A stretch of DNA of 64,000 nucleotides, taken from contig PLZV01000037.1 of NCBI GenBank assembly GCA_003152315.1, forward strand, positions 41,679 to 105,678. Direction: 5' to 3'. Below, piece by piece: positions 163 to 25,864 of this stretch. The notes under the pieces are model-generated. The model made no database searches and had not been told where the DNA came from. It saw nothing but the letters and a program-made list of their open reading frames with translations. The translations under genes and the position numbers were made by a program. The stretch's first letter is position 1. Every line of letters begins with the position of its first letter. This stretch comes from Verrucomicrobiota bacterium (GTDB lineage Bacteria > Verrucomicrobiota > Verrucomicrobiia > Palsa-1439).

Positions 163-2004
163 ATGCCTGGCTATTTCATTTATTGCCGTAAATCATCCGA
201 AGCCGAAGACCGGCAGGTTCTTTCCATTGAATCGCAAATCCGCGAACTGGAGCAGATCGCCGCCAAGCTCAATTTACCCGTGGCTGAAATTCTGACCGAG
301 TCGAAATCGGCCAAAGACCCGGGCCGCTCGGTGTTCAATCAAATGATGCAACGCCTCTATCGAGGTGAAGCCGTCGGCATCATTTGCTGGAAACTTGACC
401 GTTTGGCGCGCAACCCGGTGGATGGCGGTTCCATCATCTGGGCCATCAAACAGCATGGCATCAAAGTTCTGACCCCAGCCCAAAGTTATGCCCGCGAGGA
501 TGACAACATCATCCTCATGTATATCGAATTCGGCATGGCTCAAAAATACGTTGATGATTTGAGCAAAAACGTGAAGCGCGGACTCAAAACCAAGATTGAA
601 AATGGCTGGTATCCGGGCGTCGCTCCGGCGGGCTACTTGAACCATACGGACAAACTGACGGGTGCAAACAACCTGATCATAGACCCCGAACGCTTTCCGT
701 TGATCCGCCGGATGTGGGACTTGATGTTGACCGGCCTCTACACCCCGCCAAAAATCCTTGAGATCGCCAATCAGCAATGGGGATTCCGCACCCGGTTAAC
801 GCGAAAAATGGGCGGCAAGTCCCTTTGCCGAAGTGCCATCTACCAGTTTTTTACCAAACCCTTCTATTACGGCAGGTTTGAATATCCAGCCGGGAGCGGC
901 CAGTGGTATCAAGGGAAGCACGAACCGATGATTACCGAAGCAGAATATGACCGTGTCCAGACACTGCTTGGGCGCAATGGCAATCCACGTCCACAATCGC
1001 AGCTTGAATTTGCCTTCACCGGCCTCATCCGTTGCGGTGACTGCAACCAGATGGTGACCGCCGAGGAGAAGCACCAGATCATGTGCGGCCATTGCCGGTT
1101 CAAGTTTGCGTATCGCCAGCGCAAGGAATGCCCGCGCTGCCAGATACCGATTGAGCAAATGACGAATCCGCTGTTTCTCCACTACACCTATTACCATTGT
1201 TCCAAAAGCAAACAGCCGGCGTGTCCGCAGAAATGTGTGAGCGTGGTTGAACTGGAAAGGCAGATCGCTGCATACCTTGCCCGTGTCCAGATTTCCGAGA
1301 AATTTAAAGATTATTGCATCAAATTCCTGCATGAGTTGCACGCGAAGGAAAGCACGACACAAAAAACCATCCTTGAAACCCAGCAGAAGGCATATCAGGA
1401 CTGCGCGCAGGAAATTGACAATCTGGTAAGCCTCAAAACATCATCCGGCAACGCTGACGGAAGCCAGCTATCAAACGAGGAGTACGGGCGACGGCGGGCA
1501 ACATTGTTGAAAGAAAAGGCAGCATTGGAGGAGTTGCTTCGGGACGCTGGGCAGCGGATTGAACAACAGTTGAGGCTGTCCGAAAAGACCTTTGATTTCG
1601 CCTGCACCGCCCAGGAGCGGTTTGCCAAAGGCAATGCCAGGACCAAAAAGAAGATGCTGGTGACATTGGGATCGAACCTAACTTTGAAGGACAAAAAGCT
1701 CTTTATTGAAGCCAGGGAACCGTTCTTCATCCTGGAAAAGTCCATGTCTGATGAAAAACCCGGAAACGAGCCTATCGAACCTGAAAATACTGGCCTGTCA
1801 CAAGGACAAAAGAGTGCATACCTCTCCGTGTATCCAAACGTGCTGGGAGGACTGGACGATGTTCGAACATTACGACACAGAAACGAGCATTTGGTTAAGT
1901 CAGTATACCACTTCTTCCAAAGCGTTTGTATGTCTCCTTCGTTCACTTTGTCCGATTGGTTTTATTTATATCACTCCGGCAGCATGGACGATTGGAAGAA
2001 TTGA
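163..2004 (+). CDS. large serine recombinase (resolvase-type catalytic domain + recombinase domain + zinc-ribbon)
   Basis: N-terminal IYCRKSSEAEDRQ motif carries the catalytic Ser in the YxRxSxxxQ context. A Cys-rich zinc ribbon (CGDCNQ...CGHC...CPRC) is followed by a C-terminal coiled-coil. ATG start at 163. Confidence 0.85.
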   Translation: MPGYFIYCRKSSEAEDRQVLSIESQIRELEQIAAKLNLPVAEILTESKSAKDPGRSVFNQMMQRLYRGEAVGIICWKLDRLARNPVDGGSIIWAIKQHGIKVLTPAQSYAREDDNIILMYIEFGMAQKYVDDLSKNVKRGLKTKIENGWYPGVAPAGYLNHTDKLTGANNLIIDPERFPLIRRMWDLMLTGLYTPPKILEIANQQWGFRTRLTRKMGGKSLCRSAIYQFFTKPFYYGRFEYPAGSGQWYQGKHEPMITEAEYDRVQTLLGRNGNPRPQSQLEFAFTGLIRCGDCNQMVTAEEKHQIMCGHCRFKFAYRQRKECPRCQIPIEQMTNPLFLHYTYYHCSKSKQPACPQKCVSVVELERQIAAYLARVQISEKFKDYCIKFLHELHAKESTTQKTILETQQKAYQDCAQEIDNLVSLKTSSGNADGSQLSNEEYGRRRATLLKEKAALEELLRDAGQRIEQQLRLSEKTFDFACTAQERFAKGNARTKKKMLVTLGSNLTLKDKKLFIEAREPFFILEKSMSDEKPGNEPIEPENTGLSQGQKSAYLSVYPNVLGGLDDVRTLRHRNEHLVKSVYHFFQSVCMSPSFTLSDWFYLYHSGSMDDWKN

Positions 2005-2078
2005 CAAAAGACGTATAAATTTGCCGGAGGCGGCAAGATAGGCCACCGGGCACGTCCAACGGCAACCACCAACCCCAT

Positions 2079-4625
2079 CTACGGGAGCAGGACACGGTAG
2101 AACCGAGCATTATAGTTTGTCCACTCAGGATCACCAAATAGGACTGTACCATTTGTATTCACGAGCAACGCGGTTGGTATCCAGTCTACTAGGTTCGTGG
2201 AGGTTTCCACGAGATAGTTATAATTGGATGCACCGGCAAACTGCAGAATTGGCGTGTTATTGGTGAGAGATATACCGAGAGTGGGCTGTGTGCTGATGCC
2301 GACAAAGCCAGTCGTCACGTTCGTCACCGTTATGCTCGACGAAGTGATATTGAACGCATCAAGGCGGAAACTGAGTGTATAAAGTCCGTTTGTGACTGTG
2401 CCGGGCAGGGCGAACCGATAGGTCTGTGAACCTGGTGTTTCCACTCTTTCATCCACGATGCCGATTTGATTGGTGTTCCAGTAAACCGTCAGCAATCCCT
2501 GCGCGGTGTTTGTGTCCGTGAAGCCAGCATCAAACTGTACGAAATTTACCGTGGTTGTAATCGTCAGACCGACAGCCAGCCAAGCTGGAGCGTTACTGGG
2601 GCCAGAACTACTGCTATCCAGTGAATGAATTGTGCTTGACTGACTCTGCGGCGAAAACCCCGAAGCAACACTGCTCAAACCTGCGCCACCATTGCCTAAG
2701 AATATTACCCCCGAGGAACTTGTGCCGTTCGGAACCAAAGAGAAATTGATGGTGGAATCAGATCGAACCGGTTGCAGGTTCTGAGACACGCACAACATCC
2801 CACAAAGTGGCAGGGGTGAGTTGTTCCGCGTCTTGGCAGCCCAGTTTCCAGCGCCATTGTCCTCAATGCTCAAAGGAAACCCATAACCTGCTGCGCAACT
2901 CTTTGCAGTGCCATTGACCGTGCTCAGATAGAAATCAATTGGCGAGCCGTGCGAAGAAGAAGGACTGGCGTTGACGTTAATAACTGGAGGGGTCGAATAT
3001 GCGATACCACTGTAATAAACCGGCAATTGCGTGGGAGCTGGGATCGTCCCACCAACATCCACATTGTAAGCCCACTGTAGCTGACCGGATGTAGAGTCAG
3101 CGAATTGTACAGGTCCGTCTATGATGCCGTACAGGACCCCTGCGAGATCCGTTGCATAATCAAATACAAAGTAATTCTCAGCCCAGTCCGCATGCCGGCC
3201 GTATTCGCTTCGGCCTTCCAGAAACTTTCCAGTGTAGGGATCAAGAAATGTCTCTTGAATGACAGGCGGATTTTGTAACTGCTTCAGTTTTTCGGCAATT
3301 GCTTCTATCACAGCCGCGCCGGCACTATGAGCAATCAGATGCACTTGTTTCCACTGGGGCTGCTGGTTCAACTGCAGCCCGTATTGGCTCCCGATATTGC
3401 CCCCTTGAATACGGGCTTGTTCAGGGTCTGGATTGGATGATTCAGATGTCCAGTCTAGCGTCCTGATCTCCCAGTTCGGAGGAACTTCGCTGCTGATCGT
3501 GTTTGCCATCTTGGTGATCCAAGAGATGTCAGAGTCAAAAAAAGACCAGCCATGCGTCACGAGAACCAAACTATCCTTACTAGGCTGTGGAGCGGGGCAA
3601 ATTGGCGCAATAATCTGAGCGGGCTGGTTACCATTCGCTCCGTCAGTCAGAACAGCTAGATACGCGATGGTGCTCGTGACGGAACCTACGGGATTCCAGA
3701 CAGTCAGGGAATAGCCGCCTGAATTAGCTGCTGTCACAGAACTCAAAGTCAACGTGGTATTTGTCGCGACGGGAATGCTCTGCCCATTGAACTGCCACTG
3801 GTAGTTGAGTGGTAGAGCGCTCACAGCGGTTACCGTGAGCGCGACACTTGTTCCAGCTTGAACGGCCTGCCCTTGTGGCTGAACGGTAATCATCGGGGCG
3901 CTTGCGCCCAGTGTATAAAGTTGTCCAATCTCCGTCGCCGACAACGCGCGATTATAGATGCGAACGTCGTCGATCTTGCCGTTAAACCACTCCCACTGCC
4001 CAGACCCGCCGTTTGGATGAGCATGTCCAATGTACAGATCCAAGGTGTTAACCGGAATGCTCCCCACGTTGCCAGTCCCGTTAACAATTCCGTCCAGATA
4101 GACCCATCCATTTGAACCTGACACGACTGCAGCGACATGATGCCACGCTAGGAGGCTGTAGGCTGTTGCCCCAAGGACATTGGGATTGTTTGTGCCCGCT
4201 CCTTGAAGACGCAATGTATGACCGCCAATGCCACTGCCCCACGTGTCAAGGGCAAATCCTCCAGGAGTGCCTGCCAACGCTTTATCTATGATCCTGTATC
4301 CACTTTGCTGTGCCGCGCTTTGGTATATCCAAGCAGATAATGTAAAATTGGAGCTAAGGTGGAGTGAAGTGCTATCGCGAACGTCAATGTATGCGGTTGT
4401 ACCATTGAAGCTGTATGCAGAATTCGTATTCCCAAATCTATCAGACGTTAGTGTTGCATTAAAGACGGTACCGTTATTGCCACTCCCACTCGCGTCGTTC
4501 ACGTTACCACTAAACGGATAGTAAGCGACCAGGCCGGTACTCAAGTCAGCATTTGTCGTTGACACTATGCTCAGGAAGATCAAAAGAGGAACACTCGCAA
4601 AATAACACGCCGTTCTACATTTCAT
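2079..4625 (-). CDS. secreted LamG (concanavalin A-like) domain protein with Ig-like region and alpha/beta-hydrolase (lipase-like) domain
   Basis: Signal peptide MKCRTACYFASVPLLIFLSIVSTTNA. Laminin_G_3-like segment YYPFSGNVNDASGSGNNG. A serine-hydrolase nucleophile-elbow pentapeptide lies within LIAHSAGAAV. Gly/Ser/Thr-rich beta-strand repeats. Confidence 0.6.
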   Translation of the reverse strand: MKCRTACYFASVPLLIFLSIVSTTNADLSTGLVAYYPFSGNVNDASGSGNNGTVFNATLTSDRFGNTNSAYSFNGTTAYIDVRDSTSLHLSSNFTLSAWIYQSAAQQSGYRIIDKALAGTPGGFALDTWGSGIGGHTLRLQGAGTNNPNVLGATAYSLLAWHHVAAVVSGSNGWVYLDGIVNGTGNVGSIPVNTLDLYIGHAHPNGGSGQWEWFNGKIDDVRIYNRALSATEIGQLYTLGASAPMITVQPQGQAVQAGTSVALTVTAVSALPLNYQWQFNGQSIPVATNTTLTLSSVTAANSGGYSLTVWNPVGSVTSTIAYLAVLTDGANGNQPAQIIAPICPAPQPSKDSLVLVTHGWSFFDSDISWITKMANTISSEVPPNWEIRTLDWTSESSNPDPEQARIQGGNIGSQYGLQLNQQPQWKQVHLIAHSAGAAVIEAIAEKLKQLQNPPVIQETFLDPYTGKFLEGRSEYGRHADWAENYFVFDYATDLAGVLYGIIDGPVQFADSTSGQLQWAYNVDVGGTIPAPTQLPVYYSGIAYSTPPVINVNASPSSSHGSPIDFYLSTVNGTAKSCAAGYGFPLSIEDNGAGNWAAKTRNNSPLPLCGMLCVSQNLQPVRSDSTINFSLVPNGTSSSGVIFLGNGGAGLSSVASGFSPQSQSSTIHSLDSSSSGPSNAPAWLAVGLTITTTVNFVQFDAGFTDTNTAQGLLTVYWNTNQIGIVDERVETPGSQTYRFALPGTVTNGLYTLSFRLDAFNITSSSITVTNVTTGFVGISTQPTLGISLTNNTPILQFAGASNYNYLVETSTNLVDWIPTALLVNTNGTVLFGDPEWTNYNARFYRVLLP

Positions 4626-4911
4626 AGTCCCCTCGCAATTGTTACTCCAACTATTCCTGGCCTCGCACAGACTTGGCGCTCTGGACCCCGAGAAGGAAGG
4701 CTCCTGAGTTTTTCAGCCTGACTGGTCGCGAGTATGCCCCGTCCGACATTGAATTCAAGTCAATTTTCCGACTGACGGCACGGAATCTCCCTTGCGCCGG
4801 CTGACTTTCCGACAGTTGTAACCTAGGGAAGGACGGCCTACATACATGGTATGTAGGGGCCAAGGCCCGTCACTACCAGACTGCCACGGCTTAACCGCCG
4901 CACCACGGGCT

Positions 4912-5065
4912 CCCCAACGTGTCGTCGGCTACCGCCCGACTTTTCTTGACGCTTTTCCCCTTCGGGCTAACCGGATAATGGACGCCTAGCCGTTGTCCCT
5001 TATCTAAAATCATCAAGAAAAGTCGGGCGGACCGGATTATCATCCTAGCCGACGACACGTTGGGG
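4912..5065. repeat. 38-bp perfect inverted repeat (arms 4912-4949 and 5013-5065, right arm interrupted by a 15-nt insertion) enclosing a 63-nt loop
   Basis: The reverse complement of ccccaacgtgtcgtcggctaccgcccgacttttcttga equals tcaagaaaagtcgggcgg + tagccgacgacacgttgggg. Flanked by ct(a/g)ccgcaccgaca direct repeats at about 5088 and 5174 and a second imperfect inverted repeat (4951-4967 / 5125-5146). Confidence 0.8.
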
Positions 5066-5331
5066 GACTGGTTTTAAGATAAGGTGCTACCGCACCGACA
5101 ACCACCCCGCTACCGCGACCGGTTCGCCCCGAAGGGCGGAGAAAAGCGTGCCGCGAACGCGGCATTTAGGACACTGCCGCACCGACAGGTGCGTCCTCGT
5201 TTCCGCCGCAACTGGCAAGTTTAGGCGTCTTCTTTTCCACCCTGCTAGTCTCGTATCCTGTCAGCACGGGATCATTCGGATCTCAAAACCAGCCACCATT
5301 ACCTCGTCGGCTGCCCCAAAACCATCTGCCG

Positions 5332-6699
5332 ATGCGACCACAACGGAAGTCCAATACACGCCGGATTTTCACTGCGGCAGGAGTGGTGACTGGTTTTGGC
5401 ACCATGAATGACCACACTATCACAATCGGTGAACGCGAGGGCTGGGGTAAACCCCAGCTTTTCGGCATATCTGCCATTGACCAGCGCCAGCACATCTACG
5501 TCATCGGAAAAACTGGTTCTGGTAAGACGACATTGCTGCGCAATTTGATTTTGCAACATATCGCCCTTGGACATGGAGTCGGTTTGATTGATCCCCACGG
5601 GGATTTGGCCGAAGAACTATTGAACCATATTCCTCCGCATCGTGCCGATCATCTAGTATATTTCAATCCGGGCGACATCGAGTTTCCCATAGGGCTTAAT
5701 TTGCTCGCCAATGTCGCCCCCGACGACCGCCATCTCGTGGCCTCGGGCATTGTGAGCGCGTTCAAGGGCATTTGGCGCGACTCATGGGGTCCGCGTCTGG
5801 AATACATCCTGTACAATGCCGTATCGGCACTTCTTGATTGCCGGAATGCCACCCTTTTGGGCGTCAACCGTATGCTTACGGATGACACATTCCGGGCCAA
5901 GGTGATTCGGCAGAGCAAAGACCCATTCATCCGAGCGTTTTGGGCAGAGGAATATGCCGGATACGACGAGCGTTTCAAACGGGAGGCCATTGCACCGATT
6001 CAGAACAAGCTCGGCCAATTCCTCTTGAATCCAGTGGTCCGCAACATTCTCGGCCAGGTCAAAGCGAAGGTGAACATTCCGTTCGTGATGGACAACCAGC
6101 GTCTTTTCATCGCCAATTTGTCCAAAGGCAGGCTTGGACACGACAAAGCAAACTTGCTCGGCTCCCTGCTTACGACTCAATTTCAACTTGGTGCCATGGC
6201 ACGAGCAAACCATCCCGAAGAAGAACGGCGTGACTTTTACCTTTTCATTGACGAGTTCCAGAACTTTTCCACCGATGCGTTTGCTTCGATTCTTGCGGAA
6301 GCGCGCAAGTATCGTCTTTGTTTGACCCTTTCGCATCAATACATAGACCAGCTCCCACTGCCGATTCGTCAGGCGGTCTTTGGCAACGTAGGGACGCTCA
6401 TTGCCTTTCGCATCGGCAGCACCGATGCCGAGGTGATGGAAAAGGAGTTTGGTAATACGATCCCCGCAAGCGTCCTTGCCGACCTTGACCGCTATGAGGC
6501 AGTGGTGAAATTGCTCGTGGAGGGAAGCAACCTCGAATCGTTCCGGGCTAAGATGCTTCCGCCATTAGAAAATCGCATCGGACGGAAGGGCAAACTCATT
6601 GCACGATCACGCGAGCGATTCTCCACTCCGCGTACCAAGATTGATGAAAAGCTGAGTCGGTGGATGGGTGGACTGATTGTACCGAAAATCGACGGGTAA
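5332..6699 (+). CDS. VirD4/TraG/TraD-like P-loop ATPase (coupling-protein-type, FtsK/HerA superfamily), no TM anchor
   Basis: Walker A VIGKTGSGKTTLL, then GLIDPHGD, and Walker B FYLFIDEFQNFST (LDEFxxL-type, as in T4SS coupling proteins). Paralogous to the core of the 20931-24035 protein. An alternative start at 5404 is possible. Confidence 0.65.
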   Translation: MRPQRKSNTRRIFTAAGVVTGFGTMNDHTITIGEREGWGKPQLFGISAIDQRQHIYVIGKTGSGKTTLLRNLILQHIALGHGVGLIDPHGDLAEELLNHIPPHRADHLVYFNPGDIEFPIGLNLLANVAPDDRHLVASGIVSAFKGIWRDSWGPRLEYILYNAVSALLDCRNATLLGVNRMLTDDTFRAKVIRQSKDPFIRAFWAEEYAGYDERFKREAIAPIQNKLGQFLLNPVVRNILGQVKAKVNIPFVMDNQRLFIANLSKGRLGHDKANLLGSLLTTQFQLGAMARANHPEEERRDFYLFIDEFQNFSTDAFASILAEARKYRLCLTLSHQYIDQLPLPIRQAVFGNVGTLIAFRIGSTDAEVMEKEFGNTIPASVLADLDRYEAVVKLLVEGSNLESFRAKMLPPLENRIGRKGKLIARSRERFSTPRTKIDEKLSRWMGGLIVPKIDG

Positions 6700-6720
6700 G
6701 GGTTGGCACGCCGCAGTCAT

Positions 6721-7266
6721 TCATACAGCAGCGCGCTGTGTGGTTTCGTCAAGGCGGCTGTATTCCGAGCCATTGTGCGCACTGACCCAGAGTTCAAGTC
6801 TTTCCATCTGATTTCCAACAATCGTCATGATAAAACAATCTAGTTCGTGCTGAGATTTACGAAAGGCATCTGCCATAGAATTCAAGTCCAACCGAGACGG
6901 TGTCGGTTTCGGTTCCGGATGAGTGTGCCATTCACCGATAAAATGCAACCCCTTATCAAAATATTGTCTAATGAGCCGTCGCTGCAAAATCCGATTCGGA
7001 ATGAACAATGTCCTCCACCGTTTATCGGCCACGTTCGGAGGAGAAGCTTCGACTACCAGAATCAACGGAAAGTCAAATTCTGCAAAGAGAAGCCCGCCAG
7101 CTTCTGGTTCGTCTTCTTTTTGGCGATATGTTGAAAAGATTTCTAATGCTTTCCTAGTCACAATAAGCTCTTGTTTGGAATGTGGAAAAGCAAAGCGGCG
7201 TGAATTTAAGAATTTTTCTGAGCGCATACGCCGCAAGTATTTGATTTGGTCCAATTTTTTCGGCAT
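6721..7266 (-). CDS. JAB/MPN (JAMM) metallopeptidase, Cap3-like deubiquitinase-type
   Basis: Complete JAMM motif: upstream Glu (EAGGLLFAEF) plus EWHTHPEPKPTPSRLD (HxHx7Sx2D). Overlaps the upstream E2-E1 gene, consistent with operon coupling. Confidence 0.8.
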   Translation of the reverse strand: MPKKLDQIKYLRRMRSEKFLNSRRFAFPHSKQELIVTRKALEIFSTYRQKEDEPEAGGLLFAEFDFPLILVVEASPPNVADKRWRTLFIPNRILQRRLIRQYFDKGLHFIGEWHTHPEPKPTPSRLDLNSMADAFRKSQHELDCFIMTIVGNQMERLELWVSAHNGSEYSRLDETTQRAAV

Positions 7267-8993: not shown

Positions 8994-9354
8994 GCCGACC
9001 GCCTCCACGAAGATCTACCGGACTTGTAGGCGTCTGACGTGCTATGCCCGCGTCGCGGTCAGCAATTTTGCAATCAACACACTCTGGCTGTTCCAAAAGG
9101 TTGTCGTTCGGCTTCCCATCTGCGTGAGATCGAAGAAACGGAGGTTTGCCATTTTCTCGCACCACCAATACTTCGCACTCCTTGCCCGTCGTTTTGTCGA
9201 TTGTATAAAAACCCGCTTTCTGGTTTTCGATGAGAAAAATGGCGTCTTCGCGTGTAAATCGCCATTTTTCCTGGAGATTGCCGACATGCGTGATATGCTC
9301 ATGAGGACTGTGATGATGAGGCTTATTAATACAAGTTATTTGATATTTTTTCAT
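8986..9354 (-). CDS. small His-rich protein with disordered C-terminal tail ending LRGG-GRHG (candidate ubiquitin-like conjugation substrate or precursor)
   Basis: ATG at 9354 with an aggaag ribosome-binding site. Sequence MKKYQITCINKPHHHSPHEHITHVG... ends ...TSPVDLRGGGRHG. Its 3' end overlaps the E2-E1 start by 8 bp. Similarity to any DUF family is uncertain. Confidence 0.55.
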   Translation of the reverse strand: MKKYQITCINKPHHHSPHEHITHVGNLQEKWRFTREDAIFLIENQKAGFYTIDKTTGKECEVLVVRENGKPPFLRSHADGKPNDNLLEQPECVDCKIADRDAGIARQTPTSPVDLRGGGRHG

Positions 9355-12585: not shown

Positions 12586-12598
12586 AATCTGCTTGCGG

Positions 12599-13945: not shown

Positions 13946-13946
13946 G

Positions 13947-17894: not shown

Positions 17895-18205
17895 AGACCT
17901 ACGAAGGAAGACGTTTCCCCCTCGGATTGGAAGTCACGGTCAACGGTCAGTCGCTCGATCCTCGTTTCGACTTGTGGGATCATAGTCCCACGGGTTTCGA
18001 GTGGGGTTACGCTGGTAGCGGCCCCGCGCAACTGGCACTGGCGTTACTCGCAGACCATCTCGACGATGACGAGCGGGCAATCACCCTACACCAGGACTTC
18101 AAATGGGCTGTGGTGACGAAGTTGCCACACTCCTGGACACTTACGACCGACGACATTGAGCGGACGTTGCAATCGCTTGTCGGAAAAGTGGGCAGTCATG
18201 TCTGA
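17891..18205 (+). CDS. hypothetical protein (mobile-element associated)
   Basis: GTGA overlap with the primase stop and ATGTCTGA overlap with the next gene. No recognizable motif. Confidence 0.4.
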   Translation: MKTYEGRRFPLGLEVTVNGQSLDPRFDLWDHSPTGFEWGYAGSGPAQLALALLADHLDDDERAITLHQDFKWAVVTKLPHSWTLTTDDIERTLQSLVGKVGSHV

Positions 18206-18485
18206 CACACTCGTGACCACGCCCAAGTTCCTCTTGGGTCAGACCGTCATCACCGCAAACGCGAACGCGGTCTTGCCCGAGTTGGACGTGATAGTGGCCC
18301 TGCAACGTCACCAAAGCGGTGACTGGGGCGACGTGGACAACCACGACCGCCAGATAAACGAGGACGACCTTCGTAGCGGAGGCAGGCTCTTCTCCGTGTA
18401 TCACACCACCGGTGGCACCAAGTTCTGGATCATCACCGAATGGGATCACTCAGTAACCACGGTCCTGATGCCGAAAGATTACTAA
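18198..18485 (+). CDS. hypothetical protein
   Basis: Translationally coupled to the upstream ORF and followed by a terminator. No recognizable motif. Confidence 0.4.
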   Translation: MSDTLVTTPKFLLGQTVITANANAVLPELDVIVALQRHQSGDWGDVDNHDRQINEDDLRSGGRLFSVYHTTGGTKFWIITEWDHSVTTVLMPKDY

Positions 18486-18492
18486 TCAAAAG

Positions 18493-18518
18493 GGCGATCC
18501 ATTCGGGTCGCCTTTTTT
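18493..18518 (+). terminator. rho-independent terminator
   Basis: Hairpin ggcga-tccattcggg-tcgcc followed by TTTTTT. Confidence 0.5.
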
Positions 18519-18631
18519 CATGCTTGCCGCGCCCGGCAAGACTGCACGTCTTTGTTGAAACTGCCCCGGGCCATACGCTTCAGAGTGGGTTCACAGGGTT
18601 CTTTCCAAAACAACAACCACAGGAGAAGTGT

Positions 18632-19489
18632 ATGAAAAATCAAGCGTATGAACGTATCACCGAACGGATTGTTTCCTTGCTCGCGCAAGGCACCGTTCCT
18701 TGGCACAAGCCATGGCAGGCAAAAACTGGTTGGCCGCGAAACTATGTCTCTCAAAAAACGTATCGCGGTATCAATGTGTTCTTGCTCTCCGCCATGAGCT
18801 ACGAATCACCTTGCTGGCTCACGTTCCGTCAGGCATCACAGCTTGGCGGCACCGTCCGCAAGGGCGAGAAGGCGTGTCCCGTCGTCTTCTGGAAATCCCT
18901 GAAGATTGCGGACAAGGAATCTGGCGAGGACAAGAAAATTCCCCTGCTTCGCATCTATCACGTCTTCAATGCAGCCCAATGTGACGGATTGAATGATGCT
19001 CCACCCGTGACGGATGAAATCACCACGGTCAAACCGGCAGAGATTGTGGCGCACATGCCAGAGCCACCCGTCATCAAACACGGCATGGCCTGTGCCTTCT
19101 ATTCACCGCTCGAAGATTCCATCGGGATGCCCTTGCTGGAACGGTTCGATTCTGAGGAATGTTACTACGCCACCTTGTTCCACGAACTCATTCATTCCAC
19201 CGGCCACGAGAAGCGGTTGAAGCGGGCAACACTCGCTGAAAACAGGGGCTTCGGTTCCGATCCCTACTGTAAAGAGGAATTGATTGCCGAAATGGGCGCA
19301 GCGTTTCTGTGCGGGCAGGCCGAGATTGCCGAGCGGACGATTGATAGTTCTGCTGCGTATATCAAAGGTTGGCTTGAGCGGTTGCGTAATGACAAGACGC
19401 TGATTATACAGGCGGCAGCGCAGGCGCAGAAGGCGGCAGACTTAATTCTTGGCCGTACGTTTCAAGAAAGCGAGGCCGCCCATGACTGA
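18632..19489 (+). CDS. ardC: ArdC-like antirestriction protein (N-terminal ssDNA-binding DUF1738-type domain + C-terminal zincin metalloprotease)
   Basis: N-terminal TVPWHKPW...YRGINVFLL typical of ArdC. C-terminal HExxH motif within LFHELIHSTGHEKRL. AGGAG ribosome-binding site before the ATG at 18632. Confidence 0.8.
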   Translation: MKNQAYERITERIVSLLAQGTVPWHKPWQAKTGWPRNYVSQKTYRGINVFLLSAMSYESPCWLTFRQASQLGGTVRKGEKACPVVFWKSLKIADKESGEDKKIPLLRIYHVFNAAQCDGLNDAPPVTDEITTVKPAEIVAHMPEPPVIKHGMACAFYSPLEDSIGMPLLERFDSEECYYATLFHELIHSTGHEKRLKRATLAENRGFGSDPYCKEELIAEMGAAFLCGQAEIAERTIDSSAAYIKGWLERLRNDKTLIIQAAAQAQKAADLILGRTFQESEAAHD

Positions 19490-19596: not shown

Positions 19597-19767
19597 CCAT
19601 TCACAACTCAGCATATTTTCAAAATCTTCACTTTCACTATTAGGTTGCGTTGATGGTGCCAGGCCCTAGACTTTCTTTGTTCCGCAGCTTTAACAAATGG
19701 GCAAGTTTCCGTGAATACCCACGGGGCTTTATTACATGGCACACAACACATACGAAAGGACATCGCT

Positions 19768-20199
19768 ATGCCCGACGAAATTACCATCACACCGAAATCG
19801 GAATCCACATCCGCCACTTCCGGGCAGGCAAATCAAAATGTCACTTTAGGCCGGACGCAGTTGGTCAGCCTTTGCGCCGCTGGTTTGGGCGTCAGCTTCT
19901 TTTTGCCGTGGGCGCATTTCTTTGGAGCCAATCCATCCGGCTTTGACCTGCAAAAATTGGGCGACGAGCAACGGCTGCTCTGGCTCATTCCCATTTTGTG
20001 CGCGATTACCATTTTTGCCGGTGTCACCAAGAGCAGGCAAAAACATGTCGGGCAACTGACCGGCGCACTTCCATTCTTCGTCGGAATTTACTGGTACTGC
20101 AAACTCGGCAGCGACCTGACGAACATCCTCGCTGCCGGTGCATACCTTTCGTTGATCTTCGGGGCAGCACTGTTTATCCTTGCGCGTAAGTCGAAATAA
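19768..20199 (+). CDS. hypothetical small membrane protein
   Basis: Predicted TM helices (LVSLCAAGLGVSFFL, LWLIPILCAITIFAGV, AAGAYLSLIFGAALFIL). AAGGA ribosome-binding site before the ATG at 19768. Confidence 0.45.
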   Translation: MPDEITITPKSESTSATSGQANQNVTLGRTQLVSLCAAGLGVSFFLPWAHFFGANPSGFDLQKLGDEQRLLWLIPILCAITIFAGVTKSRQKHVGQLTGALPFFVGIYWYCKLGSDLTNILAAGAYLSLIFGAALFILARKSK

Positions 20200-20210
20200 C
20201 CGCCAACCAC

Positions 20211-20924
20211 ATGGGACATATGTTTGGATTTTTTGAAAAGAAAAAGGCGGATGTTTTAAGTCACTGGTATTCACTCGTTCCCGGTTTCAACACTTCCACC
20301 AAGGAGTTTTATGAAGCCGTTGAGAAGGAGTTGAAACAGCGTGAAGTCCCCGGCCTGGAAATATTCCACGTTGATTTTGCCGAAGGCGGCATTTTATCCA
20401 GCAAGCGCGAGTATTTACGAATGACCCGCGAGCGATTGGTGTTCGATGTGTGCGCTGCGCCCTTCGGCACCAGCTACTTCTTCAGTTGCCGGTTTGCGGA
20501 AATTCCGGCTGTTATCAGACTGTGGCAGTTGTTCGTGGTGTTGATAGCTGCATTGCTGACCGTGGCATTGGCGTTCAAACTTTTAGGATTCATCCTTGGC
20601 GTTGTCGTGCTTCTTGCCGGTTTTGTGTTCCTGATGTACACGCTCCGCAATGCGGTCGCCATGGGGTTGCAAGACCTCGATGCCACGCTCATCAAATCTC
20701 CTGTGGTTGGTCCGATTTATGAAAACTGGTTTCGCAAAGAGACATACTACCGTCACGACACCCGTCTCATGTATTGCGACACGGTGAACGCTGTCGCCAA
20801 AGCCAAGGTGGAAGAAACCACCGGCGCAAAGGGCATCAAATTAGTTCGGTTCAACGAATACAGCCCCATTTTTGGCGAACTCTACAAACCAACCATTGTG
20901 CCACTGCCCAAGGAACCATCCTGA
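20211..20924 (+). CDS. hypothetical membrane protein
   Basis: Central hydrophobic hairpin (LWQLFVVLIAALLTVALAFKLLGFILGVVVLLAGFVFLMY). Tightly spaced with its neighbours, consistent with an operon. Confidence 0.5.
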   Translation: MGHMFGFFEKKKADVLSHWYSLVPGFNTSTKEFYEAVEKELKQREVPGLEIFHVDFAEGGILSSKREYLRMTRERLVFDVCAAPFGTSYFFSCRFAEIPAVIRLWQLFVVLIAALLTVALAFKLLGFILGVVVLLAGFVFLMYTLRNAVAMGLQDLDATLIKSPVVGPIYENWFRKETYYRHDTRLMYCDTVNAVAKAKVEETTGAKGIKLVRFNEYSPIFGELYKPTIVPLPKEPS

Positions 20925-20930
20925 CGCCTT

Positions 20931-23900
20931 ATGTCCCAGCTCGACGAACAATTGAGCGCAGAGTTTCACCGCTGGGAACAACGTGGACGCGGCTGGCAGG
21001 TGTTTTCCGAACCCGTTCAACCCGAACCGGCTTTTGTCCCTTTCAATGGCCATTATCTCCCTGCCACAGCGCCCATTGATGACGGAGCCAGGCCGACCTT
21101 TTTGAGTTCGCTGGTGCAAAAAGTGAGCCGAAGGTTAAGCACCGAAACGGTAGCACCACCGGCTATGCCCGAACCCGAAGAAGAGCTAGAACCGACCGCA
21201 CTCATCCGTGAATCACTGGTGGAATTACAGGCATCGCTCCCGGACAAGCTCGATATTTCCAAGGAAACGTTCGAGCAGTTTCTTCTGAATCTTTCATTGT
21301 GCCGCGAACCCATCGCCTTTGAACTGCTTGGCACGCATACAAAGGTTGCGGCGCAGTTTGTTGCCAGTAAGAGCGACGTTGCGTTGCTCCGCCGCCAGTT
21401 GCAGGCGTATTTTCCAGAGGCCGTGTTTGTCACCCGTGAAGGCGGCTTGGATCAAGCATGGGATACGAGCCAGGGCGATGAAGTCTTGGCGGTGGAATTC
21501 GGCCTTAAACACGAATTCATGCTGCCGCTTGCCAGTGGGAGACTTGACCCGTTCATTGGGATCGTGGGCGCGCTCTCAGAGTTGCAGCCGGGTGAACTAG
21601 GGCTTTTCCAAGTCCTGTTCCAGCCGGTGCAGCATCCGTGGGCGGAAAACATTGTGTTTTCCGTAACGCATGCTGACGGCAAGCCGTTTTTCATCAATTC
21701 ACCGGAACTGGCCGGGGCAGCGGAAAACAAAGTCGCCCACCCACTATATGCCGCCGTTGTCCGCATTCTGCTTCGCGTAGGTGAGTTTGACCGCCTGTTG
21801 CAACTGGCCCGCGACCTGGCCGGATCACTGCGCGTCTTCGCGCACCAGAACGGCAACGAACTCATCCCGCTTCATAACGACGATTACCCGTTCGAGGAAC
21901 ACATTGAGGACGTGTTGCGCCGCCAGACCCGGCGAACGGGAATGTTGTTGAACAGCGACGAGCTTACCGGCTTTGTCCATCTGCCGTCGAGTGCCGTTCG
22001 CTCGCCCGTTTTTCAACGGCAAACGACCAAGACCAAGGCGGCACCCGCCATAGTCCGCAAGCGGGGCCTGTTGCTCGGCACTAATGACCATGCAGGCGAA
22101 ATAGTTGAAGTCAGATTGTCCGCCGAACAGCGCACACGGCACACGCACGTGATCGGTGCAAGCGGCACGGGCAAGTCCACACTGCTTTTCAATCTCATCC
22201 GGCAGGACATTGAAAACGGTGAAGGCGTGGCCGTGCTTGACCCTCACGGTGATTTGATTGACCGCATTTGCGGCATCATCCCGCCGGAGAGGATTGACGA
22301 CGTGGTATTGCTCGACCCGGCGGACGATCAATTTTCAATCGGATTCAATATTCTCTCGGCCCATTCCGATTTGGAGAAAAATCTTTTGGCGTCCGACTTG
22401 GTTGCCGTCTTCCAACGTCTCTCGACCAGTTGGGGCGACCAGATGAACAGCGTGCTACAAAATGCGATTCTTGCGTTTCTGGAAAGCGACCGGCGCGGCA
22501 CCATTGCTGACGTGCGCCGATTCCTGATTGAACCCGCCTTTCGGAATGAATTCCTGAAATCCGTCAAAGACTCCGAAGTCGTCTATTACTGGCAGAAAAG
22601 TTTTCCCCACCTCTCCGGCAACAAATCCATTGGCTCGATTTTGACGAGGCTCGACACATTCCTTGCCCAAAAGCCCATCCGCCACATGGTCTCCCAGCGG
22701 GAGAACCGGCTGGATTTCGCGCACATCATGGATACTGGCAAAATCTTTCTGGCGAAACTGCCGGAGGGACTTTTGGGCCGGGAAAACTCATATTTGCTCG
22801 GCACATTGATGGTGTCAAAGTTCCAGCAGATTGCCATGAGCCGGCAGGCGCAGCAGATCGCCGCCCGGCGGGACTACTGGCTTTACATCGACGAGTTCGC
22901 CAATTTCATCACGCCCTCTATGGCGGAGATTTTGAGCGGGGCGCGAAAGTATCGCATCGGCCTGACGCTGGCACATCACGAGTTGCATCAGTTGCAGCGC
23001 AATCCCGAAGTGGCGAGCGCCGTCATGTCGCATCCCTACACGCGAATCGTGTTTCGTGTTGGCGATGACGACGCTAAGAAACTTGCCGAAAGTTTTTCAT
23101 ATTTCGAGGCGAAGGATTTGCGGAACTTGGAGACCGGACAAGCCATTGTGAGGGTAGAGCGTGGCGATTTTGATTTTAACCTCACCGTTCCTTTGCCGGA
23201 GAAACCGGACGAAGCGGCAGCCACCGCACGACGGCAGGAAGTCATAACGTGTTCGAGAAAAAAATATGGCACAGCACGGGCGGACATTGAGACCCAGCTT
23301 GCACAGTCGCGGGCAACACTTGATGGGCAGCCTGTCAGTCGCACCATTTCCAATCCGCCACTGGCGTTGAAGACATCCGTTCCCGACCGCACGCCAGCAC
23401 ATTCGGAAATGCCGGAACCTGCGGGACCACCGAAGGCGGCAGTGCCGCCCGACAAGGATGAAGCCACGCCGTCGAAAGCGCCACAGACGGTTACTGGTGG
23501 CCGTCCGCAAGGATCACCACGCGATTTAGGCCGGGGCGGGGCGCAGCACCAAGCCACTCAGAAACGCATCAAAGAGGCAGCGGAAGGCCTTGGTTTCCGC
23601 AGTATCATTGAAAAGCCGGTGTTGGATGGTCAGGGGAGCGTGGACTTGTGGTTGGAGCGCACCGGCCAGGAAATCGCCTGTGAAATCTCCATTACAACGA
23701 CCATTGACCATGAAGTAGGCAATGTCGCCAAGTGCTTGAAGGCCGGGCTTCCGAAAGTGGCCGTGATTTGTCTGGACGAGGAACGCTTGCAGAAGATCAG
23801 CAATGCCGTTTCCGGCAGTCTTGGCGCAACATTAGCGGCGCAGGTTGAGTATTTCCAGCCCGCCGCGTTCATCGCGCATTTGAAGGCGTTGCCGCCGCCA

Positions 23901-24035
23901 GCACCAGAGACTCCCGAAACCACATATGGCGGTTACAAGGTCAAACGCTCGGTGCCAAAATTGTCCGCAACGGAGCAGAAGCAGAAAGAGGACGTTGCCA
24001 ACCGCATCATGGCCGAGACGATGCGCCGAAAGTAA
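20931..24035 (+). CDS. large multidomain VirD4/TraG-like P-loop ATPase (about 380-aa N-terminal unknown domain + ATPase core + Pro-rich linker + C-terminal possible PD-(D/E)xK-like domain)
   Basis: Walker A HVIGASGTGKSTLL, then AVLDPHGD, and Walker B WLYIDEFANFIT. The core is clearly paralogous to the 5332-6699 product. The C-terminal region reads ...VDLWLERTGQEIACEIS...K. Confidence 0.7.
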   Translation: MSQLDEQLSAEFHRWEQRGRGWQVFSEPVQPEPAFVPFNGHYLPATAPIDDGARPTFLSSLVQKVSRRLSTETVAPPAMPEPEEELEPTALIRESLVELQASLPDKLDISKETFEQFLLNLSLCREPIAFELLGTHTKVAAQFVASKSDVALLRRQLQAYFPEAVFVTREGGLDQAWDTSQGDEVLAVEFGLKHEFMLPLASGRLDPFIGIVGALSELQPGELGLFQVLFQPVQHPWAENIVFSVTHADGKPFFINSPELAGAAENKVAHPLYAAVVRILLRVGEFDRLLQLARDLAGSLRVFAHQNGNELIPLHNDDYPFEEHIEDVLRRQTRRTGMLLNSDELTGFVHLPSSAVRSPVFQRQTTKTKAAPAIVRKRGLLLGTNDHAGEIVEVRLSAEQRTRHTHVIGASGTGKSTLLFNLIRQDIENGEGVAVLDPHGDLIDRICGIIPPERIDDVVLLDPADDQFSIGFNILSAHSDLEKNLLASDLVAVFQRLSTSWGDQMNSVLQNAILAFLESDRRGTIADVRRFLIEPAFRNEFLKSVKDSEVVYYWQKSFPHLSGNKSIGSILTRLDTFLAQKPIRHMVSQRENRLDFAHIMDTGKIFLAKLPEGLLGRENSYLLGTLMVSKFQQIAMSRQAQQIAARRDYWLYIDEFANFITPSMAEILSGARKYRIGLTLAHHELHQLQRNPEVASAVMSHPYTRIVFRVGDDDAKKLAESFSYFEAKDLRNLETGQAIVRVERGDFDFNLTVPLPEKPDEAAATARRQEVITCSRKKYGTARADIETQLAQSRATLDGQPVSRTISNPPLALKTSVPDRTPAHSEMPEPAGPPKAAVPPDKDEATPSKAPQTVTGGRPQGSPRDLGRGGAQHQATQKRIKEAAEGLGFRSIIEKPVLDGQGSVDLWLERTGQEIACEISITTTIDHEVGNVAKCLKAGLPKVAVICLDEERLQKISNAVSGSLGATLAAQVEYFQPAAFIAHLKALPPPAPETPETTYGGYKVKRSVPKLSATEQKQKEDVANRIMAETMRRK

Positions 24036-24053
24036 TTCCGCACCGTACAAGCG

Positions 24054-24290
24054 TCATTTCTTTTCCAGATAAAAGACCGGTCCAACCACCTTGAACGGCG
24101 AGTAGGCTTCAATCATCCGCGTGCGAAGCTTTGCCAGACTCTGCTCAGGGCTTTCTTCCGCATGGAAAATGGATGTCTGTGACACGCCCATGTCTCGCGC
24201 AACTTGCGCCCGTGTTTTTCCGGCTTTTTTTCGCATCCGTTTGGCGAACGCCGCCAATTCCACTTCGGATAAGAATTCTTTTTTCGACAT
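24054..24290 (-). CDS. small HTH DNA-binding protein (XRE/excisionase-like)
   Basis: HTH-like segment RAQVARDMGVSQTSIFHAEE. ATG at 24290. Divergent from the recombinase gene. Confidence 0.5.
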   Translation of the reverse strand: MSKKEFLSEVELAAFAKRMRKKAGKTRAQVARDMGVSQTSIFHAEESPEQSLAKLRTRMIEAYSPFKVVGPVFYLEKK

Positions 24291-24373
24291 GCGAAAGATG
24301 TAGCCTGTTATAGGCAATATAGCTACACTTTTTTCTTGCGTTGCCCCGGTGATCTTTGATATGAAGTTATGCT

Positions 24374-25864
24374 GTGAAGGACAACAGTGTTTTGAACAAA
24401 CCGGTTGGCATCTGGATTCGGGTTTCCACCGAAGACCAAGCCAAGGGCGAGAGCCCAGAACACCATGAGGATCGCGCCCGCAGCTACGTTAAAAGCCGTG
24501 GCTGGCAGGTCAAAGAGGTCTATGATTTGGCCGGGCAAAGCGGCAAGGCCGTCATGCAGCATCCCGAAGCCAAGCGGATGATGAAAGATGTAGAGCGCGG
24601 CCACATCACCGGCTTGGTGTTTTCCAAGCTCGCCCGCCTGTCCCGCAACCGGCGCGAACTGGAGGACTTCGCCGACTATTTCAACAAACACAACGCTGAC
24701 CTCATTTCGTTAAGCGAAGCTATTGACACCAGCACCGCCGGAGGCCGGATGTTCTTCCATTTGCTAGGCGTGTTCGCACAGTGGGAACGCGAGGAGATCA
24801 CCGAGCGCGTCAATGCGTCGGTGTTGACTCGCGCCAAGCTGGGCAAGTCCATCAATGGCAGCGCCCCCTACGGCTACCAATGGAAAGACCGCAAGCTGGT
24901 CATCCAACCAGAGGAAGCAGCCATCCGCCGCAAAGCCTATGAACTGTTTGTGCAGTTCCGGCGCAAAGGTCAGGTTGCCAAGCAACTAAACGCCGCTGGC
25001 TATCGCACTCGCGACGGCAACATCTGGCGTGACACCGGGATTGTGCGAATCTTGGATGAATCCAGCGCCAAAGGCGTTTATTTGTTCAATACCATGCGCC
25101 AGACAGGAACATGGCGCACCGAAGCCAAGCCAGAAGGCGAGTGGGGCAAGGTCGAATGCCAACCGATTGTGTCCGAAGACCTGTGGAATCAGGTGAATCA
25201 GATCATTGAGGAGCAGTTGAAGGCCTGGAAGAAGCCCGGCAAACCGCCGGTGCATCTGTTCAGCGGACTCGCGACTTGTTCCTGCGGTCACAGAATGTAT
25301 GTCGCCGCCAACAGCCCGAAATACTTCTGCCGGAAGTGTTGCAACAAGATTCCAATTGTGGACTTGGAAAACATAGTCCGGGACGAGTTAAAGGCGTTTT
25401 TCGGCCAGCCGGAGCGGATTGCCAACCACTTGCAGGAGGCCGACCGGAACTTGGTCGAAAAGTCCGCCTTGCTGGAGGCCCACCAGCGCGAGATTCAAAA
25501 GGTGCGGGATGAAATGACCCGGACGCACCGACTCTACATTCAGGAGCAAATCACCGCCCAAGGCTTTGGCGACTTCTACAAACCGGCAGAGCAGCGATTG
25601 AACCAGCTTATGGCAGAACTACCCAAGCTGGAGGCCGAGGTGGATTTCTTGAAGGTCAACAAGCTGTCTGCGGACGACGTGGTGCATGAAGCCCATTCCC
25701 TGCACGAACGGTGGCCGAAAATGGCCGTGGTGGACAAACGGAAGATCGTTGAAGCCATCATCGAAAAGATCGTGATCGGTGACGGTGAAATTGACATAAC
25801 CTTCTCGCATGGGCCTACTTCTATAGAACAATGCAAAAACCAGCAGGGGTTAGGATTGAGGTGA
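24374..25864 (+). CDS. large serine recombinase
   Basis: VGIWIRVSTEDQ catalytic Ser motif. Zinc ribbon CSCGH...CRKCC. C-terminal coiled-coil. GTG start at 24374. Confidence 0.85.
   Translation: MKDNSVLNKPVGIWIRVSTEDQAKGESPEHHEDRARSYVKSRGWQVKEVYDLAGQSGKAVMQHPEAKRMMKDVERGHITGLVFSKLARLSRNRRELEDFADYFNKHNADLISLSEAIDTSTAGGRMFFHLLGVFAQWEREEITERVNASVLTRAKLGKSINGSAPYGYQWKDRKLVIQPEEAAIRRKAYELFVQFRRKGQVAKQLNAAGYRTRDGNIWRDTGIVRILDESSAKGVYLFNTMRQTGTWRTEAKPEGEWGKVECQPIVSEDLWNQVNQIIEEQLKAWKKPGKPPVHLFSGLATCSCGHRMYVAANSPKYFCRKCCNKIPIVDLENIVRDELKAFFGQPERIANHLQEADRNLVEKSALLEAHQREIQKVRDEMTRTHRLYIQEQITAQGFGDFYKPAEQRLNQLMAELPKLEAEVDFLKVNKLSADDVVHEAHSLHERWPKMAVVDKRKIVEAIIEKIVIGDGEIDITFSHGPTSIEQCKNQQGLGLR

Follow-up and report, generated by a model that had tools for sequence, protein, structure and literature searches.

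A probable integrative mobilizable element of an abundant, mainly Verrucomicrobiota-type family, adjacent to a separate serine recombinase module

Introduction

The first 26 kb of a 64,000-nucleotide stretch of DNA from a Verrucomicrobiota bacterium (GenBank assembly GCA_003152315.1, contig PLZV01000037.1, positions 41,679 to 105,678 of the forward strand; the whole stretch is referred to here as the window) carry two genes for large serine recombinases, LSR1 and LSR2, and between them a gene for a secreted protein, genes for putative DNA transfer functions and a block of cargo genes. An initial annotation of this DNA had described these 26 kb as a single accessory island bounded by the two recombinases and resembling an integrative mobilizable element (IME) that lacks a type IV secretion system (T4SS). 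In this report, we describe the segment at 4833-25866, designated element B, which we consider likely to be one copy of an IME that belongs to an abundant, mainly Verrucomicrobiota-type family, with LSR1 being separate from it.

The recombinase genes recognized in the initial annotation, at 163-2004 (LSR1) and 24374-25864 (LSR2), both exceed the Pfam cut-offs for Resolvase and Recombinase; the resolvase catalytic-domain motifs YCRKSS and IRVST can be read in the LSR1 and LSR2 translations, respectively, and Zn_ribbon_recom stays below its cut-off in both (22.3 and 17.6 bits versus 25.3). The other genes named at that time, encoding a replication-relaxation protein, a primase, ArdC, two VirD4/TraG-like ATPases, a helix-turn-helix (HTH) protein and E2-E1/JAB proteins, were found by Pfam and PADLOC to be present as stated. 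With regard to mating-pore genes, whose absence had also been reported, no match to VirB4, VirB6 or pilin-type domains was obtained with any large open reading frame (ORF) in the window, small ORFs not having been scanned exhaustively.

Results

Backbone genes and family of element B

Synteny was determined by tblastn in 80 loci from GTDB species genomes and at least 80 metagenome loci, the metagenomes being scanned with the small ATPase of element B. The backbone has a common order, which runs from the small ATPase through Replic_Relax, primase, DUF6166, a 95-aa ORF, ArdC, a variable region, two membrane proteins (TM1 and TM2), a large ATPase and an HTH gene on the minus strand to LSR2. In the window, it consists of the following genes, in which T4CP stands for type IV coupling protein.

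5332-6699, plus strand: small T4CP-like ATPase (T4CPs), 455 aa, first backbone gene (Pfam TrwB_AAD_bind 8e-11, DUF87, TraG-D_C)
15803-16735, plus strand: Replic_Relax protein, candidate MOB_C-class relaxase (Pfam PF13814, 4e-22; syntenic in relatives)
16866-17894, plus strand: DnaG-type CHC2/Toprim primase (Pfam, synteny)
17891-18205, plus strand: DUF6166 protein (Pfam, synteny)
18198-18485, plus strand: 95-aa ORF, orf95 (synteny)
18632-19489 (ORF 18440-19489), plus strand: ArdC-type protein, single-stranded DNA-binding N-domain and zincin peptidase (ArdcN 1.7e-33, MPTase-PolyVal 2.8e-35)
19711-20199, plus strand: membrane protein TM1 (hydrophobic segments)
20211-20924, plus strand: membrane protein TM2 (hydrophobic segments; beside the large ATPase gene in nearly all relatives)
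20931-24035, plus strand: large T4CP-like ATPase (T4CPL), 1034 aa (TrwB_AAD_bind 4.6e-13)
24054-24290, minus strand: small HTH protein, 78 aa, between the large ATPase and LSR2 (HTH_31)
24374-25864, plus strand: large serine recombinase LSR2 (Resolvase 9.8e-30, Recombinase 4e-15)

Most of the GTDB loci of this family belong to Verrucomicrobiota (Limisphaerales, subdivision 3); Acidobacteriota contain relatives that are about 50% identical, and some metagenome-assembled genomes contain two or three diverged copies. Relatives of the small ATPase are 49-92% identical to it, the closer ones being located directly upstream of Replic_Relax, and the large ATPase has more than 3500 homologues (74-94% identity among the matches listed). 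Of the 60 relatives with enough flanking sequence, 40 have an LSR2-like gene downstream of T4CPL, at a distance of at most 600 nt in 23 of these, and 24 have the 78-aa HTH gene, every time adjoining LSR2. We thus regard LSR2 as the predicted cognate integrase of element B and the 78-aa protein as a candidate regulator or directionality factor. Seven related loci (L010, L011, L017, L043, L044, L047 and L060) carry, just upstream of TM2 and on the minus strand, a gene for a PEGA-domain protein of 550-630 aa that the copy in the window lacks.

Among PLSDB plasmids, neither the large ATPase nor the relaxase had close relatives, the matches being at most 36% identical and confined to the NTPase core. 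A phage origin of element B was ruled out, as there were no matches to structural or packaging proteins and PHROGs yielded only peptidoglycan-binding repeats and HTH regulators. No papers mentioning the signature domains of the family were found in the literature; the family thus appears to be undescribed, and the same applies to its abundance, the structure of its ends and its atypical ATPases, although the kind of element is already known.

Ends and insertion sites of element B

The boundaries of element B were determined by comparison with about 160 related loci. The left homology edge falls at 4832/4833 in about 45 loci, with per-position information of at most 0.2 bit outside it, 0.9 bit at 4833 and at least 1.1 bit from 4838; the right homology edge, for which alignments took in 11-17 relatives, falls at 25866 in 16 of 16 relatives, with information content dropping from about 2 bits to at most 0.5 bit at 25867. 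Judged by these edges, element B (approximately 4833-25866; 21,034 bp) is a discrete unit. The junctions are as follows.

4820-4836: left junction of element B, candidate left attachment site (attL); conservation rises at 4833 (ACGG)
25832-25880: right junction of element B, candidate right attachment site (attR); conservation stops 2 nt past the LSR2 stop codon (25862-25864)

The right flanks of the relatives are unrelated to each other and several of them are housekeeping genes, including GcpE (32 nt away), EPSP synthase, methionyl-tRNA formyltransferase, MacB/FtsX and DUF1559; the left flanks vary as well (e.g., CO-dehydrogenase flavoprotein, phosphoesterase, Ogg, RHS, AbiEii, and a Type IIG restriction-modification [R-M] system). 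With its own putative integrase at one end and with discrete ends that occur in differing genomic contexts, element B is predicted to be integrative. The GG found at both ends (4835-4836 and 25865-25866) is a candidate for the core dinucleotide of LSR2, which is a guess, and weak signals outside the element (CCC at 4824-4826 and CGT at 25872-25874) may reflect a target preference. The direct repeats for which the initial annotation had proposed a search in the flanks of the 26-kb island were not found; comparison of 1-162, 2005-2078 and 4626-4860 with 25840-26340 yielded exact direct or inverted repeats of 8-9 nt at the longest, which is no better than in shuffled sequences. For an element moved by a serine recombinase, long repeats at the ends are not expected.

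Left-end palindrome and conserved leader

Immediately inside the left end, element B begins with about 500 nt of non-coding DNA (4833-5331) that extends to the small ATPase gene and is 70-80% identical in relatives. Two structures were identified in this leader.

4837-4857: terminal palindrome CCTACATAC-ATG-GTATGTAGG, at the left end of element B, after ACGG
4912-5066, plus strand: hairpin of about 155 nt (DNA fold and covariation)

The palindrome was found in 50 loci, in which its arms covary (ATAC/GTAT, AAAC/GTTT and TTAC/GTAA), and is probably a protein-binding site. Folding of a 541-nt region as DNA, which yielded the hairpin, gave -125.7 kcal/mol for that region (z = -8.9); in 30 sequences, the outer stem of the hairpin is invariant, and pairing in its inner stem is preserved by double compensatory changes, 4-14 for each pair. 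No Rfam family matched the conserved leader. The hairpin is a putative origin of transfer (oriT) or a putative single-strand initiation site for the primase of element B.

Proteins with putative transfer functions

The match of the Replic_Relax protein to PF13814 reaches 79.7 bits, versus a cut-off of 25.3, and extends over positions 2-182 of the 191 in the profile. The MobC, or MOB_C, relaxase class of CONJscan corresponds to the Pfam family PF13814 (PMC5357655), and Replic_Relax has a PD-(D/E)XK fold (PMC3424549, PMC6736028). The two ATPases score 41.8 and 49.2 bits for TrwB_AAD_bind, with a cut-off of 20.5; both also show weak similarity to the archaeal DNA-translocating protein CedD, in the P-loop region only and far below the cut-off. 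In the large ATPase, a DUF8128 region at the N-terminus is followed by a TrwB/HerA-type NTPase and, at the C-terminus, by a PD-(D/E)XK-like domain. The predicted structure of this ATPase is based on a shallow alignment and has a mean predicted local distance difference test score (pLDDT) of 40, such that the C-terminal domain alone is usable; residues 870-990 (window 23538-23900) show a pLDDT of about 80, and the only high-probability Foldseek matches of this domain are to the restriction-endonuclease fold (AF1548, EcoT38I, R2 endonuclease domain, Can2 and Bax1). TM1 and TM2 may supply a membrane anchor for the ATPases. The sampled variable regions of relatives of element B contained no T4SS genes, with PEGA-domain, TCAD9, ParA and ATPase_2 proteins being found there instead.

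The LSR1 module and the LamG gene

The window is 100% identical to locus L001 from position 9839 of that locus onward, as well as to several metagenome contigs, which represent one strain. To the left of element B, the following features were identified.

1-162, plus strand: 3' end of p57, upstream of LSR1 (p57 at L001 9736-9909; the module extends about 1.2 kb to the left of the window)
163-2004, plus strand: large serine recombinase LSR1 (Pfam Resolvase 1.7e-20 and Recombinase)
1869-2050, plus strand: variable C-terminal tail of LSR1 and downstream DNA, candidate attachment region of the LSR1 module
2079-4625, minus strand: secreted LamG/Ig-domain protein, 848 aa (Pfam Laminin_G_3, Ig_3)

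LSR1 belongs to a 3-kb module that encodes a RuvC-like protein of 177 aa (minus strand; RuvC-like only weakly, and in a homologue), p133 of 133 aa (minus strand), the 57-aa p57 (plus strand) and LSR1 itself (plus strand). An IMG/VR contig (L089) shares this block, and that block only, at 70% DNA identity (L001 8654-11706, corresponding to window -1184 to 1868). Three further loci (L180-L182) show the same gene order, surrounded by OLD-family, Qat, GmrSD, Mrr and HATPase genes, with sugar-metabolism genes adjoining the module on the left in L182. LSR1 has more than 5500 homologues, with 69-89% identity among the matches listed, and the module is kept as a compact unit in thousands of contigs, usually amid defence genes.

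Homology of the LSR1 module, as determined by blastn versus L089, stops at 1868, which is 45 codons before the LSR1 stop, and the match of L182 to the 3' region of LSR1 covers 1833-1868 only. In L180, an orphan copy of the window-type LSR1 tail lies 1.5 kb downstream of that locus's own recombinase; because of this displaced copy, the comparison suggests a putative attachment site of the module inside the 3' end of the recombinase gene. Integron-like cassette capture at this 3' end was considered and dropped, as no second tail copy was found in the window or elsewhere.

Among the 23 loci of the element B family whose left flank measures 2.5 kb or more, the RuvC-like/p133 genes are present in this flank in 5, any recombinase in 2, and neither in 17. 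The LamG gene, located between the LSR1 module and element B, is part of neither backbone, and its sole relative in related loci is 34% identical (L169). Based on this distribution, LSR1 is placed outside element B, as the predicted recombinase of a separate and equally widespread 3-kb module in a defence island. The single 26-kb unit of the initial annotation is thus not upheld, given the homology edges at 4832/4833 (about 45 loci) and 25866 (16 of 16) and the position of LSR1 and the LamG gene outside the backbone, and neither is the split ccrAB-like pair that had been offered as one explanation for two recombinases, since LSR1 and LSR2 lie 22 kb apart, are only 21% identical, and LSR1 occurs with its own 3-kb module elsewhere. 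The other explanation offered at that time, two elements in tandem, was essentially right.

Cargo of element B

In 10 of 31 relatives, the gap between the small ATPase and Replic_Relax genes measures at most 84 nt, versus 9.1 kb in the window; the DNA at 6.7-15.8 kb is therefore cargo in the main hotspot of the family. It contains the following genes.

6721-7266, minus strand: JAB/JAMM peptidase, Cap3-like (Prok-JAB 8e-13; PADLOC JAB 2.8e-50)
7206-8993 (ORF 7206-9008), minus strand: E2-E1 fusion, Cap2-like (Prok-E2_B, ThiF; PADLOC E1-E2 2e-138)
8986-9354, minus strand: DUF3892 protein (122 aa) at the head of the operon (PF13031)
9534-9935, plus strand: HTH protein, divergent from the DUF3892 operon (HTH_3 1.5e-14)
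9932-10987, plus strand: HExxH protein, 351 aa (motif WHEIAHLL in the sequence; no Pfam match)
11509-15578, minus strand: three further cargo proteins of 379 aa, 448 aa and 543 aa (Pfam)

The best PDB sequence matches of the E2-E1 fusion are to Cap2 (7tsq, 7to3), an enzyme of Type II CBASS (antiphage signaling systems that are based on cyclic oligonucleotides). The operon formed by the DUF3892, E2-E1 and JAB genes contains no CD-NTase (a nucleotidyltransferase of the cGAS/DncV type) and no effector, and no nucleotidyltransferase was found at 6.7-11.5 kb. In an alignment of 30 DUF3892 homologues, about 21 are of a long form, in which a variable linker is followed by the invariant C-terminal sequence PVDLRGGGRHG; the long form precedes E2-E1 and JAB genes in three independent contexts, and a short form does not. 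The tail resembles the LRGG end of ubiquitin, and homologues without it are found in operons that lack E1, E2 and JAB. The structure predicted for the DUF3892 protein shows a folded beta-rich domain and a disordered tail, with no PDB fold match; a beta-grasp, ubiquitin-like fold, which we had considered, is unsupported, as there was no significant Foldseek match. We infer that DUF3892 would replace the CD-NTase in the role of the protein that is activated and conjugated at its C-terminus, and it may be the substrate that a Cap2-like enzyme conjugates in a relative of Type II CBASS that lacks a CD-NTase. Another DUF3892-E2/E1 operon (L186 46-2852) lies beside a Replic_Relax gene and a gene for a 614-aa T4CP-like protein; therefore, the DUF3892-E2/E1 defence cassette recurs on MOB_C-type elements.

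The 351-aa protein has no Pfam or PDB sequence match, and the HExxH stretch alone aligns with a Peptidase_M78 homologue. Pairs of CapH and CapP have been described in the same layout, and have been reported upstream of both DUF3892 and E2/E1/JAB operons as well (bioRxiv 10.1101/2022.04.27.489752). By analogy with these pairs, the HTH and HExxH proteins are a putative CapH/CapP-like regulator of the defence cargo, with the peptidase assignment derived from motif and arrangement. The initial annotation had listed them as an HTH/ImmA module of the element itself; they are better read as regulators of the DUF3892-E2/E1-JAB cargo. As for the three remaining cargo proteins, the 379-aa protein contains two PG_binding_1 domains and matches only endolysin-type peptidoglycan-binding repeats in PHROGs, the 543-aa protein contains Mtd_N, and the 448-aa protein has no match. 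In a hydropathy scan, the 379-aa and 543-aa proteins each showed a hydrophobic segment at the N-terminus and the 448-aa protein did not; the N-termini of the former two are consistent with secretion.

Composition and surroundings

Metagenome contigs that extend the window leftward contain at least 9.8 kb of further accessory DNA, with a Type I R-M system and Gabija (GajA 5e-212, GajB 2e-122); the accessory region therefore does not start at 163. In L001, the hsdR, hsdM and hsdS genes and the Gabija pair occupy 852-8585, directly to the left of the LSR1 module. The initial description of an island bounded by two recombinases thus holds for their position only. The GC content of the window is as follows.

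4832-25867 (element B): 52.4%
6.7-15.8 kb (cargo): 49.5%
25.9-38.9 kb: 55.7%
39.2-64 kb: 59.0%

Element B is AT-richer than the chromosome (52.4% versus 59% GC), as had been noted; the composition does not, however, mark a sharp boundary at 25.9 kb. The right backbone of element B has 54.7% GC, nearly equal to the DNA immediately outside it, and there is no step at 25864, with the clear rise instead being found at about 39 kb. Genes for tRNA-Leu and tRNA-Gly (38883-39228) are located where the GC content rises to the chromosomal level of about 60%; a listed ORF that begins at 39192 overlaps tRNA-Gly, and its real start must be further downstream. The genes at 26-38 kb (DUF1559, PEP-CTERM, BACON and glycosyltransferase) are host-type genes, typical for this phylum. 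They include two tandem paralogous DUF1559/prepilin-type genes (26301-28028) that have a 165-nt stretch at 88% identity in common; similar DUF1559 genes also flank related elements elsewhere (L009, L021). A second low-GC patch (54000-57000; 50.5-52% amid 59-61% GC), with an ankyrin-repeat gene inside it (54578-55828), may be another small acquired segment.

Discussion

The predicted integrase, the candidate MOB_C-class relaxase, the coupling-type ATPases, the primase and ArdC, together with the lack of mating-pore genes, support the type of element named in the initial annotation, i.e., an integrative mobilizable element without a T4SS. As primase, ArdC and relaxase are present and mating-pore genes are not, single-strand conjugative transfer via a pore supplied in trans would be expected, and helper-dependent mobilization is the best reading of how element B would be transferred. 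In the life cycle that we propose, LSR2, encoded at the extreme right end, would excise and integrate the element, with the crossover at or just past its own stop codon and, on the left side, just outside the terminal palindrome. The left leader, with its palindrome and 155-nt hairpin, would serve as the transfer origin or as a single-strand initiation site, and the Replic_Relax protein, as a MOB_C-class relaxase, would nick there. The two anchor-less T4CP-like ATPases, probably with TM1 and TM2, would then pass the DNA to the mating pore of another element, and in the recipient, primase and ArdC would act on the single strand as it enters.

A number of observations weigh against the reading of element B as an IME of which LSR1 is no part. 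The alignment to related genomes that the initial annotation had called for delivered the homology edges of element B and no empty site; all contigs that encode the exact DUF1559 protein of the right flank or the LamG protein are occupied, at about 100% identity. No circular or tandem junction was found in IMG/VR or in 179 loci with a pattern that joins the right end to the left palindrome, and inspection of the ends revealed no convincing imperfect inverted repeat between them of the kind that would represent attP arms. The relaxase activity and the oriT remain putative assignments. With regard to the coupling function, the best scores of both ATPases for NCBIfam T4CP models are 45.5 and 42.1 bits versus cut-offs of 250-650, and a hydropathy scan identified no hydrophobic or transmembrane segment in either, although the N-terminal membrane domain is essential in MobB and TrwB (PMC7431656). 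Finally, about 12 loci, including some with shorter flanks, have an LSR1-type module, or its half with the RuvC-like and p133 genes, directly to the left of element B, with differing junction points, and one locus (L125) has the same gene order as the window (RuvC-like gene, p133-like gene, large serine recombinase, small cargo, element B and LSR2). Moreover, we know of no helper T4SS for these hosts. The association between the LSR1 module and element B is thus real, even though it is no family trait; it may reflect a shared hotspot, nesting or an occasional composite, and a functional link between the two or a composite unit is conceivable.

One explanation for this association is that the window holds a composite element of about 26 kb or longer, including the LamG gene, on which LSR1 and LSR2 act jointly or alternately. 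In addition to the order seen in L125, L101 has a recombinase between p133 and element B, and in five distant relatives (L155, L156, L160, L163 and L165) an LSR1-like gene lies 1-2 kb upstream of the small ATPase. However, neither module nor recombinase was found in 17 of the 23 loci with left flank, LSR1 and the LamG gene are not conserved alongside element B, and the LSR1 module occurs without element B in L089 and L180-L182; the left edge at 4833 is sharp and conserved and has a palindrome of its own, the point at which module and element meet varies by locus, and the module and further accessory DNA run on to the left of the window. We consequently consider a composite improbable. Element B could also be nested in a larger island that is driven by LSR1, has its cargo to the right of LSR1 and extends from the RuvC-like gene rightward beyond 25.9 kb, possibly as far as the tRNA genes at 38.9 kb. 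The sub-chromosomal GC content up to about 39 kb, the site of tRNA-Leu and tRNA-Gly, would fit such an island, as would the defence-type cargo to the right of the LSR1-like gene in L180-L182 and the sugar-metabolism genes that abut the module on the left in L182. By contrast, homology of the LSR1 module breaks at 1868, where the displaced tail in L180 suggests an attachment site; the genes at 26-38 kb are of host type for the phylum, with similar DUF1559 genes flanking element B in other genomes, and a repeated end sequence was not detected in the window. This arrangement is thus unlikely as well.

A different possibility concerns transfer itself, in that element B could be self-transmissible without a T4SS, by means of a minimal apparatus that consists of TM1, TM2 and the two FtsK/HerA-type ATPases, one of which carries a restriction-endonuclease-fold fusion. 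VirB4, VirB6 and pilin genes occur in no sampled member (about 160), yet the family is very abundant and multi-copy; the ATPases are atypical, with no membrane domain and one nuclease-like fusion, and weakly CedD-like, and TM1 and TM2 are strictly linked to T4CPL. Nevertheless, the hosts are diderm, and to our knowledge there is no known case of conjugation across two membranes without a mating-pair-formation complex. The relaxase, ArdC and the primase indicate classical single-strand transfer instead, the CedD similarity is confined to the P-loop region and far under the cut-off, and helper genes that are missing from short flanks say nothing on the rest of a genome. While we hold self-transfer to be doubtful at best, it would, if true, represent a new mechanism of DNA transfer in diderm bacteria and would explain a family that is mating-pore-less yet abundant.

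Among known systems, CloDF13-type MOB_C systems (MobC relaxase plus MobB), to which the label "rare MOBC1 family" refers (PMC5357655, PMC7431656, PMC6736028), can be taken as the closest functional analogue of element B. Like element B, they lack a mating pore, have a MOB_C relaxase with a PD-(D/E)XK fold and bring their own coupling-type ATPase; CloDF13-type MOB_C mobilizable plasmids have been reported to encode their own coupling protein (PMC7431656). CloDF13 is, however, a small plasmid, whereas element B would integrate via a large serine recombinase; MobB has an essential membrane domain, whereas element B encodes two anchor-less ATPases, one of them with a nuclease-like C-terminal domain; and there is no detectable close sequence relationship between the two. 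IMEs of Firmicutes with serine recombinases, such as the streptococcal ones of the Rel_PF13814/MobC class, likewise combine an integrase, a relaxase and an oriT with the lack of a T4SS, the oriT in element B being a candidate. Tn4451, with TnpX, is a serine-recombinase IME of Firmicutes that is comparable to element B. Serine recombinase integrases and PF13814 relaxases are both on record among IMEs (PMC5357655). In contrast to the Firmicutes elements, which belong to another phylum and show no close homology, the conserved backbone of element B is far larger, comprising primase, ArdC, two ATPases and membrane proteins, its candidate att site abuts the recombinase stop codon, and insertion sites differ widely among relatives.

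The oriT of pAD1 contains a large inverted repeat in an adjacent non-coding region, which resembles the leader of element B. pAD1 also has a MOB_C relaxase gene (TraX) beside a TraG-like gene (TraW), and TraX is a restriction-endonuclease-like relaxase (PMC6736028); unlike element B, pAD1, a Gram-positive plasmid, is self-transmissible and encodes a mating apparatus of its own. The two large serine recombinases in one accessory region are reminiscent of ccrA/ccrB of the staphylococcal cassette chromosome SCCmec, and LSR1 and LSR2 give weak, sub-threshold matches to the NCBIfam models of CcrA/B/C. However, ccrA and ccrB lie side by side, are co-transcribed and act jointly, whereas LSR1 and LSR2 each belong to a different conserved module, with just one of the two being present in most relatives. 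The cargo operon shares with Type II CBASS the Cap2-like E2-E1 and Cap3-like JAB proteins and the divergent CapH/CapP-like pair, and differs from it in that the CD-NTase and the effector are absent and a tailed DUF3892 protein occupies the first operon position.

Overall, the map of the region is corrected from one 26-kb island to two independent recombinase-driven units and a defence island on the left, and the ends of a mobilizable-element family are defined to within a few bases. The clade of LSR2 uses many different insertion sites, with a candidate att site that abuts its own stop codon, and may thus be of interest for genome-engineering efforts that mine recombinases. In addition, three problems become testable, namely how the family spreads so widely without a known helper or a T4SS, what role a nuclease-fused coupling-type ATPase plays, and whether an LRGG-tailed DUF3892 protein is a substrate of a Cap2-like E1-E2 enzyme. 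Thousands of environmental contigs contain the family of element B, which often reaches several copies per genome, is found mainly in Verrucomicrobiota and is probably a major vehicle of defence and surface-protein cargo in the Verrucomicrobiota of soil, peat and freshwater.

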